In this document: piece by piece, positions 4,054-59,720 of the stretch
Position numbering within the stretch: the stretch's first letter is position 1
Layout: each line of letters starts with the position of its first letter
Program-made: the position numbers and the translations under genes
Assembly (NCBI GenBank): GCA_049314455.1
Contig: JBMOFC010000003.1
Span: 6,971 to 70,970 of the forward strand
DNA from: Chthoniobacterales bacterium
GTDB taxonomy: Bacteria > Verrucomicrobiota > Verrucomicrobiia > Chthoniobacterales > UBA6821
Direction: 5' to 3'
DNA length: 64,000 bases
Notes under the pieces: generated by a model
Told to the model about the DNA's origin: nothing
Databases searched by the model: none
Seen by the model: only the letters and a program-made list of their open reading frames with translations

Positions 4054-4719
4054 ATGTTCACCGGAATTATTCAAAGTATTGCTACGATTGCCGCCATTCA
4101 TGATCAAGAAGATCTCCGTACTATCACACTCACTTTTGAAGAGGGTTTTTGTCATGACTTGACTCTCGGAGCGAGTGTTTCTGTAGATGGGGTTTGTTTA
4201 ACGGTTATAAAATTACATCATGGAGACCGTGCTGATTTTGATGTCATGCTTCAAAGCCTGAAGACAACAACGCTTTGTGAGGCTTCCTTGGGGTTACACG
4301 TCAATGTGGAACGAGCAGCTAAGCAAGGAGCTGAAATCGGAGGTCATCCTCTTTCTGGTCATGTCGATTTTTACGGAAAAATTAGTGATATTCGAAAGCC
4401 TCAAAACAACCATGTCCTCTACGTTGAAGTTCCTCTGCGATGGAGACGTTATATTTTTGCTAAAGGTTATATTGCACTCAATGGTACCAGTCTGACGATT
4501 AGTGAAGTGAATCACCATGAAGGATGGTTTGAAGTCTGGCTCATTCCTGAAACGCTACGCAGAACTACCTTCATCGAAAAAAAAATAGGAGACCTCATTA
4601 ACATTGAGATCGATCGTAAGACCCAAGTGATCGTGGATACGGTGCGATCCACTGTGGAGGAGCTCTGTACCGAAGGCGCTAAGTTAAGGGGTGTTGCGGA
4701 TGCTTGCTCAAGAAAATAG
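4054..4719 (+). CDS. ribE: riboflavin synthase alpha chain
   Basis: Canonical MFTGIIQ N-terminus. Two lumazine-binding repeats (GASVSVDGVCLTV / GYIALNGTSLTI). Confidence 0.92.
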   Translation: MFTGIIQSIATIAAIHDQEDLRTITLTFEEGFCHDLTLGASVSVDGVCLTVIKLHHGDRADFDVMLQSLKTTTLCEASLGLHVNVERAAKQGAEIGGHPLSGHVDFYGKISDIRKPQNNHVLYVEVPLRWRRYIFAKGYIALNGTSLTISEVNHHEGWFEVWLIPETLRRTTFIEKKIGDLINIEIDRKTQVIVDTVRSTVEELCTEGAKLRGVADACSRK

Positions 4720-4725
4720 GTTGCT

Positions 4726-4888
4726 TATAGTCTTTTAAAGAGAGAAGGGGGCGATAAGACGATGAAATTTTTCTTGATAACAAGGCCGAAGAGCGAGAGC
4801 TATCTTAAGATAACGTGAGTGATGAGAACGCTGTTATCAAGAAAAAGAGCAAGTTCAGATCGTGACCTTATGGATTTAAAAGACTATA
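4726..4888. repeat. Family A nested-palindrome element, copy A1 (163 bp)
   Basis: Perfect 14-bp termini TATAGTCTTTTAAA / TTTAAAAGACTATA. Inner arms CTTGATAACA / TGTTATCAAG. Central palindrome TATCTTAAGATA. Near-identical inverted copies lie at 9902..10065 and 34056..34218. Confidence 0.9.
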
Positions 4889-5053: not shown

Positions 5054-5863
5054 TTAATCGGATGTCATTCTCGGCACTGCAGCCAGCAGCTCTTTTGTAT
5101 AGGGATGCTGAGGATGGTCTAGAACTTTCTTTGCATCCCCTGATTCCACAAGGTGTCCATGATGCAGAACAAGAACAGAGTCGCTGATATGTTTGATAAC
5201 AGCGAGATCATGACCGATAAAAATCATGGTGAGCCCTAACTCTTCTTGAAGATCTTGTAATAAATTAATGATCTGTGCTTGCACGCTCACATCGAGAGCG
5301 CTGACAGGTTCATCACAAATAAGTAATTCAGGTTCTACAGCTAGAGCCCGTGCGATGCCGATGCGCTGTCGTTGGCCTCCACTAAAGGCATGCGGATAAC
5401 GATGCATCATCGTAGGTTCTAAACCTACTTTTTTAAGTAAAGTAGCAACGCGATCATCACGTTCTGATCGCGACATTTTTAAAAAATGTATTTCTAGCGC
5501 TTCCCCAATAATCTTCCTGATGGTGAGTTTAGGATTGAGTGATCCATGAGGGTCCTGAAAAATCATTTGGATTTTTTTTCTCCATGGATAAAATTCCGAC
5601 TCATTCATGATGCCAATATTTTTTCCTTCGTAGAATATTTCTCCAGAAGTTGGCTTGATGAGTTTAACAAGAGTTCTTCCAATGGTTGTTTTGCCACTGC
5701 CACTCTCGCCCACAAGACCAACTGTTGTTCCTCGAGGAACGTTAAAGCTGACATCATCAACCGCACGCACTTCTCCATGTTTGCGATGTAGAATACCCTT
5801 AAAAATGGGGAAATAGACCTTGAGATATCGAACTTCCAAGAGGGGTGAGGGATGAAACTTCAT
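5054..5863 (-). CDS. ABC transporter ATP-binding protein, oligopeptide/dipeptide (OppF/DppF) type, with no permease or binding-protein partner nearby
   Basis: Walker A GESGSGKTT, signature FSGGQRQR, Walker B LLICDEPVSALD, and the Opp/Dpp C-terminal motif HPYTKELLAAVP. The ATG at 5863 is preferred; the ORF-track start at 5917 is a TTG overlapping the upstream gene. Confidence 0.85.
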   Translation of the reverse strand: MKFHPSPLLEVRYLKVYFPIFKGILHRKHGEVRAVDDVSFNVPRGTTVGLVGESGSGKTTIGRTLVKLIKPTSGEIFYEGKNIGIMNESEFYPWRKKIQMIFQDPHGSLNPKLTIRKIIGEALEIHFLKMSRSERDDRVATLLKKVGLEPTMMHRYPHAFSGGQRQRIGIARALAVEPELLICDEPVSALDVSVQAQIINLLQDLQEELGLTMIFIGHDLAVIKHISDSVLVLHHGHLVESGDAKKVLDHPQHPYTKELLAAVPRMTSD

Positions 5864-5885
5864 TAAAGAAAGTTGATAATAGTAC

Positions 5886-6347
5886 TCACTCTTTTTCCTT
5901 CTCGGAAAGAATCTCAATAAATTCTTCAGGAGAGGAGGCCAGCAGCAATTTTTCTACGGTGGTAGCATCGTTGCAGACGCGAGCAATCGAGCCCATAACA
6001 CGAAGGTATTCCTGATTGAGTGCATGAGGAATGGCGATGACAAAAATAAGATGAATGGGTGCCGTAGCATTTTTAAAAAAAATTCCTGCACTACTGCGTC
6101 CCGCAGCAATGACAAAGTCTCTGATGCTACTCGCACGTCCATGATAGAGCATCGCTACCATTTTTCCTTTACTAGAGAGAGGAAACGGTGAAGGCACGAG
6201 GATGGAATGATACAATTCTTGCCAGTTAGCGACACGATGATCTTCTTTCAAATGTTCTAACATTTCTTCCAAGACAGCTTCTTCTCTTTTGGAATTCAGT
6301 GAGAGCAACAGCGACTGTGGAAATAAAAAATGACTGAGGTCAGGCAT
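5886..6347 (-). CDS. ptsN: PTS EIIA type-2 (PtsN / EIIA-Ntr-like) regulatory protein
   Basis: About 150 aa. The layout is EIIA-2-like: a candidate phospho-His region (MLYHGRASSI), then IHLIFVIAIP, and a C-terminal LL..SPEEFIEIL. Confidence 0.55.
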   Translation of the reverse strand: MPDLSHFLFPQSLLLSLNSKREEAVLEEMLEHLKEDHRVANWQELYHSILVPSPFPLSSKGKMVAMLYHGRASSIRDFVIAAGRSSAGIFFKNATAPIHLIFVIAIPHALNQEYLRVMGSIARVCNDATTVEKLLLASSPEEFIEILSEKEKE

Positions 6348-6354
6348 AAAGTTT

Positions 6355-7287
6355 CTATTGTGAACTGCTCCATGCAGACTGAGGTGTTTTGAGATTACTT
6401 CCTATCCATTGAAGTTTCGCACACAGAATCTGAGCAAAAGTTGTTTCTGGGAGCATTGCTAAAGGAAGTTTTTGAGAGGAGGTTGAAAGGAGAAGGCTCT
6501 CTTCCGTTTTCAGAAGGCGAGCTTTATGGCCATCAAGACTAATAAAAACTTCCTGGGTGCCAGTAGCTTTAATCGTCATTTTACTTTGATCAGAAATGAC
6601 CATAGAACGATTACTAAAAGCGTGCGGACAGATGGGAGTAATGAGCAAGACGCGGCTATCAGGTATCACTACAGGGCCTCCTGCAGCGAGAGAATAAGCA
6701 GTCGATCCTGTAGGTGTAGCAATAATGAGACCATCAGCGTTATATTCAGTAAAAAAATGATCGTCGATAAAAATCGAAAGACTTACCAAGCGTGAACGTT
6801 CGCCACGGCTGATTACGACATCATTGAGAGCATTGCCGATGGGTTCTACGTGTTGCGATCTGTTAGTGATCGCAATTTCTAGAAGACTTCTCGGACTTAA
6901 AACATAACTCTGATCAGCCAAGCATTGGATAGCTCTTTTATACTCGTGAGCATTTAAACAGGTGAGAAATCCAAGAGAACCAATATTGAGTCCAAATATT
7001 GGTTTTAAATATTGGTTGCTTCGATGCATAGCACGGAGGATGCTTCCATCGCCTCCCATGACAAGAAGGAGATCGCACTGTTTCGCAAGAGAAAGTTCAT
7101 CTAGCGGTGAGCTTTCCCCAACGAGTTCGGCTGTCTTGTGTTCCATGAAAAAAGAGAGATGTTGTCGTTGAAGCTCTTCAATAACGAGTCGTACAGCAGG
7201 AGCTGCACCTTCTTTTTTTGTATGAGCAATAAGACCTATCGTTATGGGAACCTTAATGCCAATTTTGTGTGTGGGGGCAGTTTTCAT
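6355..7287 (-). CDS. nadK: NAD kinase
   Basis: Motifs GGDGSILRA, NDVVISRG and ADGLIIATPTGSTAYSLAAGGP. Confidence 0.92.
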   Translation of the reverse strand: MKTAPTHKIGIKVPITIGLIAHTKKEGAAPAVRLVIEELQRQHLSFFMEHKTAELVGESSPLDELSLAKQCDLLLVMGGDGSILRAMHRSNQYLKPIFGLNIGSLGFLTCLNAHEYKRAIQCLADQSYVLSPRSLLEIAITNRSQHVEPIGNALNDVVISRGERSRLVSLSIFIDDHFFTEYNADGLIIATPTGSTAYSLAAGGPVVIPDSRVLLITPICPHAFSNRSMVISDQSKMTIKATGTQEVFISLDGHKARLLKTEESLLLSTSSQKLPLAMLPETTFAQILCAKLQWIGSNLKTPQSAWSSSQ

Positions 7288-9082: not shown

Positions 9083-9793
9083 CTAGCCTCCAAGATATCC
9101 TGTACGAACTTTTGGATTGACCAGGAGTTCTTCTCCAGTACCAGCAAGAGTGATGACTCCCAGTTCGATCAGATAAGCGTGATGTGCAATTTTAAGAGCC
9201 ATTGTCGCATTTTGTTCCACTAGGAGAATAGTCATTCCTTCGGCGTTGATTTTTTTGATAATGGAAAAAATTTCTCGAATGAGTAGTGGAGCCAATCCCA
9301 TAGAAGGTTCATCGAGCAAGAGTAATTGAGGCTCTGTCATCAAGGCTCTTCCAAGGGCTAACATCTGTTGTTCTCCACCTGAAAGTGTTCCTGCGATTTG
9401 TGATAACCGCTCCTGGAGTTTTGGAAAGAAATGGAAAACACGATCCAGATTTTTTTGACGCTTTGCAGAATCATGCGTACGCCAAGCTCCTAGCATGAGA
9501 TTTTCTGAAACTGTAAGGTTGCCAAAAATAGAACGTCCCTCAGGAACAAGGTTAATCCGATGAGAAGCTCGTTTTTCTGGCTCTTCCTGATTTAAAAGTG
9601 CTCCTTGAAAAAAAAGTTTTCCTTCGTAAGAAGTGGCTCCAGCAATGGCGCGCAGTATGGAGGATTTACCAGCACCATTGGAGCCAATAAGCGTGACAAT
9701 ATTTCCCATAGGAACTTCAAAAGAAATACCGCGAACAGCTTTTATTTCACCATAAGAAACAGATAAGTGATCTGCTAAAAAGAAAGAATTCAT
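9083..9793 (-). CDS. livF: branched-chain amino-acid ABC transporter ATP-binding protein LivF
   Basis: GSNGAGKSS, LSGGEQQMLALGRAL, LLLLDEPSMGLAP, and the LivF-type C-terminus (V..AYLG). Confidence 0.88.
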   Translation of the reverse strand: MNSFFLADHLSVSYGEIKAVRGISFEVPMGNIVTLIGSNGAGKSSILRAIAGATSYEGKLFFQGALLNQEEPEKRASHRINLVPEGRSIFGNLTVSENLMLGAWRTHDSAKRQKNLDRVFHFFPKLQERLSQIAGTLSGGEQQMLALGRALMTEPQLLLLDEPSMGLAPLLIREIFSIIKKINAEGMTILLVEQNATMALKIAHHAYLIELGVITLAGTGEELLVNPKVRTGYLGG

Positions 9794-9901: not shown

Positions 9902-10065
9902 TATAGTCTTTTAAATCCATAAGGGCACGATCTAAACTTGCTCTTTTTCTTGATAACAGCGTTCTCATCACTCACGTTATCTTAAGATAGCGCTCGTTCT
10001 TCGGCCTTGTTATAAAAGAAAAATTTCATCGTCTTATCGCGCTCTTCTCTCTTTAAAAGACTATA
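9902..10065. repeat. Family A element, copy A2 (164 bp), inverted relative to A1
   Basis: Same TATAGTCTTTTAAA termini. Hand alignment to the reverse complement of A1 shows only a handful of substitutions and one 1-nt indel. Confidence 0.9.
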
Positions 10066-10079
10066 AACCAATTTTTAAA

Positions 10080-10607
10080 ATGAAACTGTATAAAATATTC
10101 CTCTTCACAAACATTCTTTTTTTTGTTTTTTCTTTTTCTCTCTTTTCTATGTCATCTTCAGAAGTCCAAATTCCTTTACTTCATGCGCATGATCTCAATG
10201 GTAAAAGCCTGGTCCTGCCTAATGATCTCTCTGCTCAGAAAACGCTTCTCCTTGTCGCTTTTGAGCGACAACAGCAAGAGGCTGTCGATTCTTGGATAAC
10301 TGCTCTAGAGCTTCGCTCTCCTAAAAATCAGATCGCCTGGGTTGAGGTCCCTCTTTTACAACGACCTTGGAAGCTAGTTGCTTCCTGGATTGACCATGGA
10401 ATGAGACGCGGTATCACCGAAGAAGCTTTTCGAGCGCATGTTTGGACGATCTACACCAATCGATCTTCTTTTTTAAAAGCATTAGGACTTACTGGAACCA
10501 AGTCGATTGTGGTTTTGGTTATTAATAAAAAGGGAGTTATTTTAGAAAAAGTCTCAGGTGACTATACTAAGGATAAAGCTCCATTAATTCTAAAAGCTCT
10601 TCATTGA
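10080..10607 (+). CDS. hypothetical secreted protein
   Basis: N-terminal hydrophobic signal-like segment (IFLFTNILFFVFSFSLFS). I recognise no catalytic motif. Coding potential rests on ORF length and its position ahead of co-directional genes. Confidence 0.55.
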   Translation: MKLYKIFLFTNILFFVFSFSLFSMSSSEVQIPLLHAHDLNGKSLVLPNDLSAQKTLLLVAFERQQQEAVDSWITALELRSPKNQIAWVEVPLLQRPWKLVASWIDHGMRRGITEEAFRAHVWTIYTNRSSFLKALGLTGTKSIVVLVINKKGVILEKVSGDYTKDKAPLILKALH

Positions 10608-12662: not shown

Positions 12663-13981
12663 AGCGTTTTAAAATTTTTCTCAAATCCAGCACCATATCC
12701 CGTTAGCTCGAGAAAAGCCGAACCAACTTCCTGATTGTTACCATCAAGAACACGACAGGCACCTTCCCAATAGCTCAGGCCGTTATTCCCGACGAGTTCT
12801 TGATTCTCTGCAAGTGGAACTAACAAAAAAGTGACGGGTTGATTATTCTTAGGATCCATGGTATGAAGCCGCATGCTAATAGGATAACGGATTTGCGTGG
12901 TTGGGCTTTTCCAATAACTAACAGGTTCCATTGAAAATTCTTTTCCACTGTAAGCAGTCAGTTTTCCCTGTGGGTCAATCCAAGTCAGTGTGGAAAAAGG
13001 GTCCTGGGTTCCATCAGCACTGCGCATGCGATAAGCCATGATTTCGTATCCCTCTTTCACTTGAAGTGAACACCAATCCCAGCCTGTTTGATTGGAATCA
13101 AGCCGTCTTGTGCTAATTTCATGGTCCATCCAAGCTTCTCCATGGACCTGTTCTTCTTGAGTTCCATTAAGAAGCGTTCCTTCTACTTGAAGTCGTGGAA
13201 AGGTCATATAGTAGCTCAAATTTTCGGGATCCTTTCCTTTCCTTAGGATAGAATTTTTGCCAAAGATAACGAGTGGCTTGAGTGGTTTTAATGTGAGTTC
13301 TAAGGAAACCTCCCCTCGAATAGAGCCAGAGAGATGGATTGTTTTTTTTATGGGATCATTCATCACAAGTGACCAATTGCCATTACGTAGATCGAGTTTT
13401 TCAGAAGAAGCAGAGGCATCCCACCCATTACGGTTCCAACGTCGCTGAAAAAGAAACTTTTTTTTCTGCACATCTAAAAGCGCTATATCTGCAAAGAAAA
13501 TAGTTTGAAAACCAAAATCACTTTGTATTTCAAGAAGCTCTTCAGAAAAAGGATTGAGTGCTGTTGCAAAAAAAGTGGATTCAAATCCAAAGCGCTTTCC
13601 TTTTTTGGTAAAAAGATGACCTGTGATGTACCACCATTCGATTTTAAAATCATCATGACTTCCATAGTCCCTGGGAAAAGAGAAATGATGCCCTTCTTGT
13701 GGAATCGAAAAGCCATCTTGAGTGACTAGCCCAGATATTTTCTGTTGAGGAGCCGCTTGGAGTTGGAGTGACAGAAATAGGAAGAAAAATGAGAGAATGA
13801 GCTGTTTATTAGACTTCTTGCATGACTCTACTGCTACTACGAATTGCTGTGTCGCTCCGAACATTATCCCCGCAGGGGAGGGAATCGCATCCTCAAGTAC
13901 CTCATGTACACTGCGTTTCTGCGAGCCGGAGGCTCCTTTTACTTCATCACCAGCAGCGAGTTTTGTAAGAAGTCTATTCAT
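12659..13981 (-). CDS. AttH/CrtC-like secreted protein (hydroxyneurosporene-synthase-like N-domain plus lipocalin-like C-domain)
   Basis: [13 protein letters not shown] motif near the N-domain. A hydrophobic signal segment ([16 protein letters not shown]) lies about 55 aa in, so the true start may be internal (for example the Met at 13864). It is the last gene of an ATPase-FtsX permease cluster. Confidence 0.65.
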
Positions 13982-25827: not shown

Positions 25828-25985
25828 AAAGAGGAGCTTTATTACTATCAGAGAAGTTCCTTTTTGGGAAATGATATAGTGTATTAAATTGAGAAAGGGG
25901 CTTCTACCGCGCTATTATTGATCTAATACACCACTATATATAGACAAAAGCTTCACAAAATCACAACAGTAGCTATCTTTTGAGA

Positions 25986-33139: not shown

Positions 33140-33913
33140 ATGCGCATAGGAATCATGGGAGCAATTCCTGAAGAGGTTGACTTGATCAGGAGTGAAATGA
33201 AGGTGAGGGAAATAGTGACTGTTGCAAGGCGAGATTATTATTCTGGTGAACTACATGGAAGTGAGGTTGTTTTAGTATTTTCTCACTCGGGAAAAGTGGC
33301 CTCTGCAAGTACAGTGACGACCCTCTTTAATCTCTTTGATGTTGATTTTCTATTGTTCGTAGGTCTGGCTGGGGGAGTGCATCCTGCTCTAAATGTGGGC
33401 GACATTGTGATTGGAGAGAGATTGTACCAACATGATATGGATAGACGGCCTCTTTTTCCAAAATTTCAAATTCCGTTAACCGAGAGAGATTATTTTTCTC
33501 CTCATGAAATACATCTGGTATGTGCAGAAAACGCCATCAATCATTTTTTGAAGGAGATTGAAGAGCATATTGCTCCAAATGTACTAGCAGAGTTTTTCAT
33601 GGAGTCTCCTAAAGTGGTAAGAGGAACGATTGCCACTGGTGATCAATTTATTTCAAATCCTGAACTTCATGACAACCTGATTTTCAAAGGAGAAATAGCC
33701 CATGCTGTCGAAATGGAAGGAGCCTCTGTGGCTCAAATCTGCCATGAATACAACAAGCCTTATCTAATCATCAGGACCATTTCTGATAAAGTCGACCAAA
33801 CTGCTTCTATCGATTTTAAGAAATTTAGAGAATCAGCCTCAAATTTTTTTTCTAGAGGAATTATTCGAAAACTGCTGCCTGATTTGATGAAGGTTTTAAA
33901 AGACTATGTTTGA
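33140..33913 (+). CDS. mtnN: 5'-methylthioadenosine/S-adenosylhomocysteine nucleosidase
   Basis: MRIGIMGAIPEEV, GLAGG, AVEMEGASVAQIC, IIRTISD. Confidence 0.88.
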   Translation: MRIGIMGAIPEEVDLIRSEMKVREIVTVARRDYYSGELHGSEVVLVFSHSGKVASASTVTTLFNLFDVDFLLFVGLAGGVHPALNVGDIVIGERLYQHDMDRRPLFPKFQIPLTERDYFSPHEIHLVCAENAINHFLKEIEEHIAPNVLAEFFMESPKVVRGTIATGDQFISNPELHDNLIFKGEIAHAVEMEGASVAQICHEYNKPYLIIRTISDKVDQTASIDFKKFRESASNFFSRGIIRKLLPDLMKVLKDYV

Positions 33914-34055: not shown

Positions 34056-34218
34056 TATAGTCTTTTAAATCCATAAGGGCACGATCTGAACTTGCTCTTT
34101 TTCTTGATAACAGCGTTCTCATCACTCACGTTATCTTAAGATAGCGCTCGCTCTTCGGCCTTGTTATCAAGAAAAATTTCATCCTCTTATCGCGCCCTTC
34201 TCTCTTTAAAAGACTATA
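34056..34218. repeat. Family A element, copy A3 (163 bp), same orientation as A2
   Basis: Same termini and internal arms. A handful of differences from A2 by hand alignment. Confidence 0.9.
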
Positions 34219-34494: not shown

Positions 34495-35073
34495 CTATAT
34501 TTTGGATTTTGGCCAGGTAATATCTCCTCCTGTTCGTGTCCAAACAGAGAATCCAAGTGGAGCACTCAAAGGGAGAAGAAGTGTTCCCTCATGGAGCTTT
34601 TCGCCGATTGCTTGGCGGAGATGGTAGGAATCGAGATGTAATGCTGATGACGGCAGCTGTGGTTCGTATATTCGAATACGTCGTCCTCCTATGCCAGCAC
34701 TATCCGTGGGATCTTTTTCAGCTGTGATGAGTTCATAATGAAGAAAAAGATATTTATCATGATAACGAGGATCAGGCGAAAGAGATTGGAGAGTGAGGAA
34801 CTTCACATTTCCAACACGTGAGATCCACCCTTCAAATTCCCAAGGCTGAGCACCACTCTTGTCCTTATCAAAAAAAGTGACATGGTAGTGGGTGCCGTCG
34901 AGGGGAGCTATGGTGGCTTCAAAAATTTTTCCACTTTTATCTTGAGTGATCCATTGCCCTAACAGAAACGTATCAATTTGGCTGATAGGTCTGCTTGGTG
35001 GGGCATCGTAGAGACAACCTGAAAGGAGAAATGTTGCTAGAGAAAGAAGTATGATGAGGGAGAAATATTTCAT
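34495..35073 (-). CDS. hypothetical lipoprotein
   Basis: Lipobox LLSGC after a hydrophobic N-terminus. 192 aa, no recognisable domain. Confidence 0.6.
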   Translation of the reverse strand: MKYFSLIILLSLATFLLSGCLYDAPPSRPISQIDTFLLGQWITQDKSGKIFEATIAPLDGTHYHVTFFDKDKSGAQPWEFEGWISRVGNVKFLTLQSLSPDPRYHDKYLFLHYELITAEKDPTDSAGIGGRRIRIYEPQLPSSALHLDSYHLRQAIGEKLHEGTLLLPLSAPLGFSVWTRTGGDITWPKSKI

Positions 35074-46732: not shown

Positions 46733-47060
46733 GTACGGTGTCTAGCACCAAGGACGTGAACGGCCTTTCAAACTCTTCCCGAAAATCCTTATGGATTTTT
46801 TGGCGCTCGGCAGCTGTCAGTCTATCAAATTATTTTGGTAGGCTGACAGCCCATCTTACCTTAAGGCTGGCTGGTAGACTTCCCCTCCGACGAGCTGTCA
46901 GTGCCCATTCTCGGGGAGCCTACCAGCCAGCTTTAACGCTCTATCTCTAATTTTTAGAGATATCATTTTTTAACATATAAGGATGCGATCCCCGCCTTCG
47001 CGGGGATGACGTTCGGAGTGACACCACAAGGCGCGGCTACAGAATTTTTTAAAATGCTCT

Positions 47061-47204
47061 AAATTGAAAAGGGCACGCCATAAGCTTGCTCTTTTTCCTT
47101 AGGACTGCGTTTTCAGATCTTGCGTTATCTTCAGATAGCGCTTCGATCTTCAGCCTTATCCTAAGAAAAAATTTCTGCGCTTCTAATGCGCCCTTTTCAA
47201 TTTA
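47061..47204. repeat. Family A-related variant element (~144 bp) with different but still complementary arms
   Basis: Shares the core blocks of A (AAGGGCACG, CTTGCTCTTTTTC, CGTTATCTT.AGATAGCGCT, AAGAAAAATTTC). Termini are AAATTGAAAAGGGC / GCCCTTTTCAATTT. Inner arms are CTTAGGA / TCCTAAG. Confidence 0.75.
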
Positions 47205-47317
47205 AGGCGCTATAGATAAAAAGGAGAATAATTCTTGTAAGAGAGCTTTGATCCTATCTTCCATCTTCAAACTTCTATCTTCTTACTCGTTCCTGTGAAC
47301 GGGTAAGAAGAAGATTT

Positions 47318-48466: not shown

Positions 48467-48548
48467 TGCTCACGAGAGGACTCGAACCTCCATGGAATTA
48501 CCCATACGCTTCTGAGACGTACGCGTCTGCCAATTTCGCCACGTGAGC
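48467..48548 (-). tRNA. tRNA-Leu (anticodon CAG)
   Basis: Hand-folded cloverleaf. Acceptor stem GCTCACG/CGTGAGC. Anticodon arm TACGT-CTCAGAA-GCGTA. Long variable arm (class II). T arm GGAGG-TTCGAGT-CCTCT. Discriminator A. CCA is not encoded. Confidence 0.9.
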
Positions 48549-51911: not shown

Positions 51912-51925
51912 ATCCTTTGACTCCC

Positions 51926-51995
51926 GTCACGTTATCTTTGCATTGCGCTCCGTCTTTGGCCTTGCTCTTTCTAAAAATTCTTGCGTTCTTTCATA
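51926..51995. repeat. Family A half-element remnant
   Basis: CACGTTATCTTTGCATTGCGCTCCGTCTTTGGCCTTGCTCTTTCTAAAAATTC aligns to the A right half (CACGTTATCTTAAGATAGCGCTCG.TCTTCGGCCTTGTTAT.AAGAAAAATTTC). Confidence 0.6.
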
Positions 51996-52016
51996 TAATT
52001 TCAACGTAATTTGACT

Positions 52017-52679
52017 ATGCCTTCTCTACTAAACAATTTCTCTTTCTTAATGAAAAATTATTTTTTCTTTTATACCTCAGTTATCCTAATCACTTTTTTT
52101 TTAACGAGCTGTGCAACACAACCTCTTCCTACAACAGGCCCACAAGAAGCTGTAATGTTAATTCGTATTGGACATGAAAAAAAACCACGCCGTGTGGTCA
52201 TTGCATTACGTGAAAAAGAGGCACCACAAACGGTCGCTAGTTTCAAGCAACTAGTGGAACATCACTATTATGATGGGCTTCTTTTTTATCGAGCATTTCC
52301 ACATTCTCTCGTCCAGACGGGAGATCCTAATACGCGCTATCGCGAGCACGATAACTCGGGAACAGGTGGCCCAGGATATACGATTCCTGCAGAAATAAAA
52401 TTACCTCATGTGAGGGGATCAGTAGCCACTTCACGTCTACCTGATAAAATTAATCCGCTTCGCGCTTCTAATGGGAGCCAGTTTTATATTTGCATAGAAC
52501 CGATGCCGCAACTCAACGGTCAATACACGGTTTTTGGCCAAGTCACAAAAGGTATAGAAGTTTTAGATGCCGTTAGCACGATTCCTACGAACAGCAATAA
52601 TTTCCCAATAGAGAAAGTGGTGATTGTATCGTTGACACTTGAACCGATGTTAGACAAAAAATCAAACAATCCGTCGTGA
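52017..52679 (+). CDS. cyclophilin-type peptidyl-prolyl isomerase, lipoprotein
   Basis: Lipobox FLTSC. Cyclophilin motifs (FYRAF...VQTGDP, GTGGPGYTIPAE, GSQFYI, VFGQV.KG..V.D). Confidence 0.85.
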   Translation: MPSLLNNFSFLMKNYFFFYTSVILITFFLTSCATQPLPTTGPQEAVMLIRIGHEKKPRRVVIALREKEAPQTVASFKQLVEHHYYDGLLFYRAFPHSLVQTGDPNTRYREHDNSGTGGPGYTIPAEIKLPHVRGSVATSRLPDKINPLRASNGSQFYICIEPMPQLNGQYTVFGQVTKGIEVLDAVSTIPTNSNNFPIEKVVIVSLTLEPMLDKKSNNPS

Positions 52680-58972: not shown

Positions 58973-59611
58973 ATGAAAAATGAAACTCTTTCTAACCGTG
59001 CTAACCATATTACTTCCTTCACTGGGGGGCCGGTTGAAACAAACTCCTACCTAGTAGCACTGCCCGAGGGAAACCTTCTTATTGATGCTCCAGAAGGGGC
59101 TGCTGCTTATTTTAAGGAACACTCTATTGACTTGCTTTTGCTCACGCATGGACATTTTGACCATGTCATGGATGCTGCAAAAATTGCTCGCCAACATGGT
59201 TGTCCTGTAGTGATGCATCAAACAACCGAAGAAATTATTGCCGATACGGGGCTGCTACGACGGTATGGTCTCGATTTTGAAGTGGAGCCTGTTAAAGTTT
59301 CACAGTATCTTGTGGAAGTGCCCAGCCAACTATTACTGGGACATTCTTTTACTATTCTTGAAGTTCCAGGACACTGCCCTGGGAGCATTTGCCTCTATGA
59401 TCCTACCGCCGGCTTACTTTACGGAGGTGATGTCTTATTTGCAGGAGGTGTTGGACGTTGGGATTTGCCAGGAGGAGGTCGAGAATTGCTCTTAGATGGA
59501 ATTCGAAAAAAATTACTCCCATTACCGCAAGAGACACGCGTACTCTCAGGTCATGGCCCTGAAACGACCATCGGTGCAGAGGCACGTTCCAATCCATATT
59601 TGCAGTTATAG
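58973..59611 (+). CDS. MBL-fold metallo-hydrolase (glyoxalase II-like)
   Basis: THGHFDH motif, a downstream PGHCPGS, and a GD..F..G.GR region. Confidence 0.85.
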   Translation: MKNETLSNRANHITSFTGGPVETNSYLVALPEGNLLIDAPEGAAAYFKEHSIDLLLLTHGHFDHVMDAAKIARQHGCPVVMHQTTEEIIADTGLLRRYGLDFEVEPVKVSQYLVEVPSQLLLGHSFTILEVPGHCPGSICLYDPTAGLLYGGDVLFAGGVGRWDLPGGGRELLLDGIRKKLLPLPQETRVLSGHGPETTIGAEARSNPYLQL

Positions 59612-59720
59612 TCAAATTTTAGAAAGAGCAACGCCGAAGACCAAGTTGCTATCCAAAGATAACGCGACGGAACGAGAACAAAGCTATTTCCTAAAAAGAA
59701 CAAAGTATGCTTTAGCCCTA
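59607..59720. repeat. Family A internally deleted variant (~114 bp), same orientation as A1
   Basis: Starts with TATAGTC. Contains CGCCGAAGACCAAGTTGCTATCCAAAGATAACGCGACGGAACGAGAAC, which aligns to the A core GGCCGAAGAGCGAGAGCTATCTTAAGATAACGTGAGTGATGAGAACG. The right boundary is approximate. Confidence 0.55.

Follow-up and report, generated by a model that had tools for sequence, protein, structure and literature searches.

Correia elements of Neisseria, also referred to as CREE or nemis, are small, non-coding repeats present in multiple copies, which duplicate a TA target, would form a long hairpin when transcribed and are located mainly between genes (PMC2229807, PMC2649163). The enzyme that mobilises them has been reported as undetermined (PMC2649163). 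RUP, a repeat of Streptococcus pneumoniae, has terminal repeats that resemble those of IS630-Spn1, inserts at TA and inactivates transposase genes by insertion into ISs (PMC2229807). ISY100 has been characterised biochemically and, judging from its oligonucleotides, has ends of the form TA-TAGT (PMC2170065). IS630-derived MITEs that insert at TA form a category that is already well established. New is the family explored here, a Correia-like, putatively IS630-mobilised MITE family of Chthoniobacterales that includes a young subfamily. The host lineage is an uncultured, freshwater-type verrucomicrobial one.

The window, by which we mean the complete stretch of 64 kb that was analysed, contains three copies of what will be called the A subfamily. 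With Correia elements their family shares the long terminal inverted repeats round a conserved core, the TA duplication, the hairpin and the intergenic position, which makes Correia, next to RUP, the closest described analogue. The copies and the landmarks of the first one are as follows.

4726..4888, + strand: A1, family-A MITE of 163 bp, starting 6 nt past the ribE stop codon, between convergent ORFs
~4726-4753 and ~4861-4888: terminal repeats of A1
~4782-4831: conserved core of A1
4726-4727 and 4887-4888: presumed TA target duplication of A1
9902..10065, - strand: A2, family-A MITE of 164 bp with one extra base and one inner arm mutated, in a divergent gap
34056..34218, - strand: A3, family-A MITE of 163 bp, nearest to the subfamily consensus, between convergent ORFs

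All three had been placed at these positions by the original prediction, which estimated about 5-10 differences per pair. The number found by blastn is slightly lower, 4-8, with A1 being 97.5% identical to A3 over 163 nt and 95.1% identical to A2 over 164 nt including one indel. In an alignment of A1, A2 and A3 that includes 10 nt on either side, the identity is delimited exactly by TATAGTC and GACTATA, and the sequences beyond are unrelated. The 14-nt terminus that had been described as perfect, TATAGTCTTTTAAA, indeed occurs six times without mismatch, at both ends of each copy. Allowing for at most two mismatches it has ten matches in the window as compared to 1.02 expected, and none of 100 shuffles reaches ten. 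The central palindrome TATCTTAAGATA is likewise intact in A1, A2 and A3. The inner 10-bp arms CTTGATAACA and TGTTATCAAG, predicted for each copy, are perfect in A1 and A3 but not in A2, where one arm has mutated and reads TTTTATAACA in the aligned orientation. Left and right A-type ends match at 23 of 28 positions and form imperfect terminal inverted repeats of ~28 bp. Since the only ORFs overlapping the element encode 27 and 34 aa and both cross its ends, it has no coding capacity.

The intergenic contexts reported earlier are correct for all three copies, with the addition that A1, which lies behind ribE (ORF 4054-4719), is also between convergent ORFs. A2 is found in the gap between ORF 9083-9793 (-) and ORF 10080-10607 (+), and A3 in the gap between ORF 33140-33913 (+) and ORF 34495-35073 (-). 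The distance between A2 and the ATG of ORF 10080-10607 is 14 nt, which means that the ribosome-binding region and any promoter of that ORF either lie in A2 or read through it. The RibE protein of the window is 70-76% identical to those of Chthoniobacterales MAGs and 91% identical to that of a JGI contig; the host hence belongs to this order as a so far unsampled member. A syntenic contig of a relative (L077, 85-89% nucleotide identity) has a spacer of 178 bp without the element, as compared to 401 bp in the window including A1. This spacer is too diverged for a base by base alignment, and a base-exact empty site was recovered for none of the A copies. The empty sites are predicted to read GGTTGCT-TA-TTGTGAAG for A1 (also listed as GGTTGCT-TA-TTGTGAAGCG), CTTTCAACA-TA-AACCAATT for A2 (also listed as CTTTCAACA-TA-AACCAATTTT) and TGTCTAAG-TA-TTCGTTCA for A3 (also listed as TGTCTAAG-TA-TTCGTTCAAGG).

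Three diverged relatives had been proposed to accompany the A copies. Relatives do exist, but blastn and an nhmmer profile identify more than three.

47050..47214, - strand: D-type copy of 165 bp, the best nhmmer hit in the window
25875..25939, + strand: mini element of 65 bp, an internally deleted D-type derivative, in a divergent gap
~51913..52019, - strand: E-type remnant with the conserved core and left end (CATAGTCAAATTAC) preserved, its right part being lost or diverged
~59607..59703, + strand: E-type remnant with a subterminal deletion, in which TATAGTC is joined to AAATTTTAGAAAGAGC and followed by the conserved core
33892..33908, - strand: solo A-type terminus CATAGTCTTTTAAAACC, with one mismatch in the 14-mer, 148 bp from A3

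This brings the family to at least eight insertions in 64 kb. Copies from other Chthoniobacterales MAGs have 88-90% identity with the D-type copy at 47050-47214. Both termini of the latter have decayed (TATAGCGCCTTAAATTG ... CAATTTAGAGCATTTTA), which indicates an old and probably immobile copy. The mini element has a perfect left end, TATAGTGTATTAAATTG, and a right end that reads TAATACACCACTATA. The solo terminus overlaps the final codons (..KVLKDYV*) of ORF 33140-33913, and the C-terminus of the encoded protein may have been replaced by an old insertion. That the A copies have perfect ends and a mutual identity of 95-97.5%, while the D and E copies of the window are decayed, fits successive amplification waves of A, D and E types of which A is the youngest. 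From the same perfect termini and high identity we infer that the A subfamily is currently or was recently active, which is as far as the word active in the original prediction can be taken.

When one genome per species was searched with a pattern of the shared core, at least 73 loci were obtained. Among the matches listed all but one derive from four Chthoniobacterales/Spartobacteria MAGs; the lone match in a non-verrucomicrobial genome (L061, Hyphomicrobiales) was rejected as a chance match inside a coding region. Alignment of 51 copies from the four MAGs reveals the same architecture, sharp ends of the form TATAGTGTATTAAATTG...CAATTTAATACACTATA and unrelated flanks. The spacing of paired termini shows a sharp peak at 165 bp (44 cases), accompanied by two cases of 164 bp and three of 166 bp. 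When the window is compared with these MAGs, it is the elements alone that match. Many of the MAG contigs terminate within an element, as expected of a high-copy repeat. Scanning viral contigs for the core pattern gave no match, and no similar DNA was found in plasmid and phage collections. Searching metagenome contigs for the A-type end gave four chance matches, none of them with an element behind it. The A subfamily is so far known from this window only.

The sharp boundaries, conserved in several Chthoniobacterales genomes, bear out the proposal of a discrete element. They also bear on the idea that the copies are the product of local segmental duplication or recombination, for which one could point to the clustering of the three A copies in 30 kb and to the fact that none was found beyond the window. 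This explanation has a negligible probability: the flanks diverge right outside the TA, so that the boundary alignment in effect refutes it, one A copy is in opposite orientation to the other two, and four other genomes contain the same architecture, with the same boundaries, at unrelated loci that number in the dozens.

The intergenic restriction seen in the window applies to the family as a whole, since each of the 41 full-length copies for which long flanking ORFs allow a placement is intergenic: 13 occupy convergent gaps, five divergent gaps and 23 tandem gaps. With respect to the flanking genes of the tandem gaps 15 copies are in opposite and eight in the same orientation, which is not a significant bias. 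Since they break MAG assemblies and adjoin the starts and ends of genes, the elements matter for assembly and annotation and possibly for gene regulation.

Two of the Chthoniobacterales genomes with the family also contain an IS with D-like terminal repeats (L074 and L048). The IS of L074 (1174-2091) has 918 bp, terminal repeats TATAGTCAATTAAATTGAAAAGGGCACT and two overlapping ORFs that are joined at an A8 run. The reconstructed transposase contains the DDE_3 (7e-34) and HTH_Tnp_IS630 (1.5e-27) domains and is 40-60% identical to those of other phyla; homologues in databases carry the annotation IS630 or ISFtu1 transposase. Homologues are mostly called as a second ORF of ~190 aa, which makes a layout of two ORFs typical of this group. 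The split between the HTH ORF and the DDE ORF falls at a conserved A8 run (ACCTATAAAAAAAACC) in both L074 (~1520-1540) and L048 (~6095-6110), and removal of a single A restores one frame. The pattern looks less like decay than like programmed frameshifting or slippage during transcription.

The L048 locus is also informative as regards the target site. Here two termini ~1 kb apart enclose an IS (5743-6788) that has inserted in the right end of a MITE. The junction reads CAATT-TA-[TAGTC...GACTA]-TA-ATACACTATA, where the consensus without interruption, CAATTTAATACACTATA, has only one TA. The original prediction had suggested that the outermost TA is a target duplication of the type made by IS630/Tc1-mariner transposases; comparison of the nested insertion with the uninterrupted consensus demonstrates this for the family. 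It follows from the duplicated TA that the true ends of the element are TAGT.../...ACTA. All copies, including A1, A2 and A3, are flanked by TA. The complete locus (L048 5589-6798) is a three-level nest, with the IS inside the MITE at a TA and the transposase gene of the IS itself interrupted at a TA. What interrupts this gene, within the LPPY codons, is a family member of 128 bp whose left end is a variant (TA-GAGGGTG...). The L048 transposase gene has two stop codons as well.

The D-type MITE end matches the end of the ISs that reside in the same MAGs (L074, L048) at 18 of 20 and 24 of 28 positions, the A-type end matches the Chthoniobacterales IS end at 21-22 of 28. This similarity is confined to the terminal repeats. 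Since the interiors are unrelated, the MITE cannot be a simple deletion derivative of the IS. ISs with a homologous transposase from Legionellaceae and other metagenomes (L082, L084-L087, L089-L090) have 916-945 bp and all end in TA-TAGT; the first 11 nt of the Legionellaceae IS end TATAGTCTTTTGATTTCAAAAGG are those of the A-type end. The ISs of homologue groups P0013 and P0023 were considered as partners of the A and E subfamilies and rejected, as they have neither A- nor E-type ends. As had been noted for the window, no IS630-type transposase is encoded in its 64 kb according to tblastn. An IS with A-type ends was found neither by this search nor by the scan of metagenome contigs for that end.

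Taken together we consider it very probable that the element is a non-autonomous MITE that depends on an IS630-family transposase for mobilisation in trans, with TA as its target. The MITE option of the original prediction thus stands, given the discreteness, the IS partner with nearly the same repeats and the TA duplication; the outcomes that would speak to the contrary were not encountered, as there is no Rfam match, no membership of Correia, RUP or REP, and the boundaries are conserved genome-wide. The enzyme would belong to the IS630/Tc1-mariner family, and within it to the small ISY100/ISFtu1-like transposases, known here from ISs of ~915-945 bp, with an HTH domain at the N-terminus and a catalytic DDE_3 domain. 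It would bind the ~28-bp terminal inverted repeats that begin with TAGT, excise the element and insert it at a TA dinucleotide, and duplication of that TA would lead to the constant TATAGT...ACTATA appearance. An IS630-type enzyme would also move the A subfamily. In such a scenario the A, D and E waves would have colonised Chthoniobacterales genomes in succession, A being the youngest, with the ~50-bp core and the full-length hairpin common to all. The MITE family is herewith paired with its likely IS630-family partner, which makes it a testable system, as ISY100 was.

A palindromic, intergenic, high-copy repeat could also be a REP/REPIN-type sequence moved by a RAYT, an IS200/IS605-like tyrosine transposase, or a MITE of the IS5/PIF type, the more so since a different GC-rich hairpin repeat is found nearby, at 46990-47060. 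We regard this as very improbable: the unit measures 163-166 bp and has terminal inverted repeats of 28 bp, unlike a palindrome of 20-40 bp, the target duplication is the 2-bp TA rather than 3-4 bp, and the IS that provides the matching autonomous element belongs to the IS630 family. Membership of REP/REPIN proper is rejected on the 163-bp unit, the 28-bp repeats, the TA duplication and the associated gene, which is an IS630 transposase rather than a RAYT.

As for the partner, the IS630-family IS resembles ISY100 (ISTcSa) of Synechocystis and ISFtu1 of Francisella in its size, 918 bp as compared to 947 bp for ISY100, and in its ~280-aa HTH plus DDE transposase. It has the same TA-TAGT ends and target TA, close homologues are labelled ISFtu1 transposase, and in the partner the transposase is split at an A-run. 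The transposase of ISY100 is a single ORF (PMC2170065) whereas the partner IS has two. A further difference with the ISY100/ISFtu1 elements is that the window holds non-autonomous derivatives only.

RUP, as well as Nezha in cyanobacteria and MITEEc1/ERIC, is similar in that the MITE ends resemble those of an IS630-family IS of the same genome and in that insertion is at TA. The nest in L048 extends this likeness to RUP, as a family member interrupts an IS630-like transposase gene and an IS in turn interrupts a MITE. There is however no sequence similarity, RUP has 107 bp as compared to 163 bp, and the elements described here pair over their full length. They also differ from RUP in comprising several subfamilies with one common core and different terminal repeats.

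The resemblance to Correia elements extends to the sequence of the ends. Between the D-type end TATAGTGTATTAAATTGAAAAGGGCATG and the Correia repeat TATAGTGGATTAAATTTAAACCGGTACG, 18 of 20 and 22 of 28 positions are identical (Correia sequences from PMC5039591, PMC9778887), which makes the D-type end about as close to the Correia repeat as to its own IS. Over its first 20 nt, the Correia repeat has 17-18 positions in common with the ends of the D-type MITE and of the Chthoniobacterales IS. The A-type end is more distant, with 13-14 of 20 positions shared with the Correia repeat (TATAGTGGATTAA..., 26-28 bp). Differences are nevertheless plenty. Correia elements reside in Neisseria rather than Verrucomicrobiota and come in length classes of 104-108 or 153-157 bp as compared to 163-166 bp. 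Their core sequence is unrelated, and their long forms contain an IHF site, CTTCAGCACCTTA, which is lacking here. In addition, the family described here has a matching IS630-family IS in the same genomes. The TA duplication is shared; the exact repeat, core, IHF site, length classes and host are not, and we place the element among the IS630-family MITEs, outside the Correia elements. The end resemblance suggests, as a lead, that Correia elements belong to the ISY100/ISFtu1-like group. If true, the IS-MITE pair described here would be a model for how Correia elements were mobilised.

The original prediction proposed that the whole unit can fold into one long interrupted hairpin, and the predicted fold agrees, with -51.4 kcal/mol (z = -6.9) for one strand and -45.1 kcal/mol (z = -8.4) for the other. 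Covariation was analysed in a 45-sequence alignment of all subfamilies, with shuffles and slid partners as controls. Standard pairs make up 96.6% of the pair cells, and 24 of the 46 pairs show changes on both sides as compared to 7.7 +/- 2.0 in shuffles and 5-10 when partners are slid. An example of a covarying series is GAAC/GTTC, GGAC/GTCC, GGGC/GCCC. This covariation shows that the symmetry of both halves is maintained, which could reflect hairpin formation or, at the ends, the binding of both ends by one transposase. The hairpin may affect neighbouring transcripts.

These results could also be explained if the element were primarily a structured module of RNA or DNA that is under host selection and has spread because of its function. 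Such a module might serve as a 3' stabiliser or terminator-like hairpin, or be a site recognised by RNase III or bound by a protein. Besides the very stable predicted hairpin and the covariation above both controls, the conservation pattern would fit such a module, since the ~50-bp core is what is best conserved between subfamilies: A and E share 45 of 51 positions in the core but 12-14 of 27 in the terminal repeats. This also counts against the MITE account, as it is unusual in a purely selfish MITE that the core rather than the terminal repeats is best conserved. The positions of A1, 6 nt past a stop codon, and of the 13 out of 41 placed copies between convergent genes would equally suit such a module.

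Other evidence does not point to a host function. The terminal repeats, TA duplication and matching IS account for the spread without one, and covariation of inverted repeats is also expected if one transposase must bind both ends. Changes that occurred after insertion are not depleted in the core within subfamilies, the VHCR copies having 0.013 changes per site in the core and 0.003-0.007 in the arms, which means there is no evidence of host selection on each inserted copy. Orientation, at 15 versus eight, shows no significant bias. Scans for sigma-70 promoters and intrinsic terminators gave hits that do not exceed the shuffled background, and the element has no T-tract terminator. A single -10-like TATATT is formed at the A1 junction; it was given no weight, promoter-like hits at the junctions being at background level. 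G-U versus A-C asymmetry favours neither strand, and inspection of the central stem shows wobble pairs on both. Of the IHF motifs neither CTTCAGCACCTTA, allowing for three mismatches, nor the generic WATCARNNNNTTR is present. As to the Rfam comparison that had been recommended, no family matches the element: permissive scans of A1 and a D-type copy yielded chance-level hits of at most 20 bits. At the gathering threshold the window gave a single match, a tRNA gene at 48467-48548 (-). That the element is primarily a host-selected module is therefore judged unlikely. The alternative posed by the original prediction, an active MITE or a selected structure, is decided in favour of the MITE as the best explanation, and the tests lend no specific support to a selected structure on top of it.

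The conservation of the core might be understood within the MITE account. Among the A, D and E subfamilies 76-88% of the core is common as compared to 44-81% of the ends. In addition, an element at L010 ~4400-4600 is chimeric, being D-type on the left and E-type on the right with the junction in the shared core, which suggests recombination between subfamilies at the core. Based on these two observations we tentatively put forward, as a possibility that is far from established, that the ~50-bp core (AAGGCCGAAGA...GCTATC-loop-GATAACG...GAGAACGC) is a functional module that was kept while terminal repeats were swapped in order to exploit different IS630-type transposases. The absence of protection after insertion points to selection on transposition-competent master copies rather than on each inserted locus. 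By analogy with the IHF site proposed for Correia elements, the core may be a host-factor or synapsis site.

The MITE family accounts for the dense palindromes between genes in an uncultured verrucomicrobial lineage that has been little studied. It offers two side leads, the core that is conserved across subfamilies with different repeats, and the D-type and IS ends that are nearly identical to the Correia repeats of Neisseria.

The decayed D-type copy adjoins a second, unrelated repeat. This consists of AGAGCATTTTAAAAAATTCTGTAGCCGCGCCTTGTGGTGTCACTCCGAAC followed by a GC-rich hairpin, CCCCGCGAAGGCGGGG, and is found in the window at 46990-47060 (-) and also at 13849-13893. The first 47-61 nt of the repeat recur with 83-93% identity in several Chthoniobacterales loci (L089 1433-1493, L020, two sites in L037, L044, L010, L059, L008 and L034), sometimes beside MITEs or the IS630-family IS.
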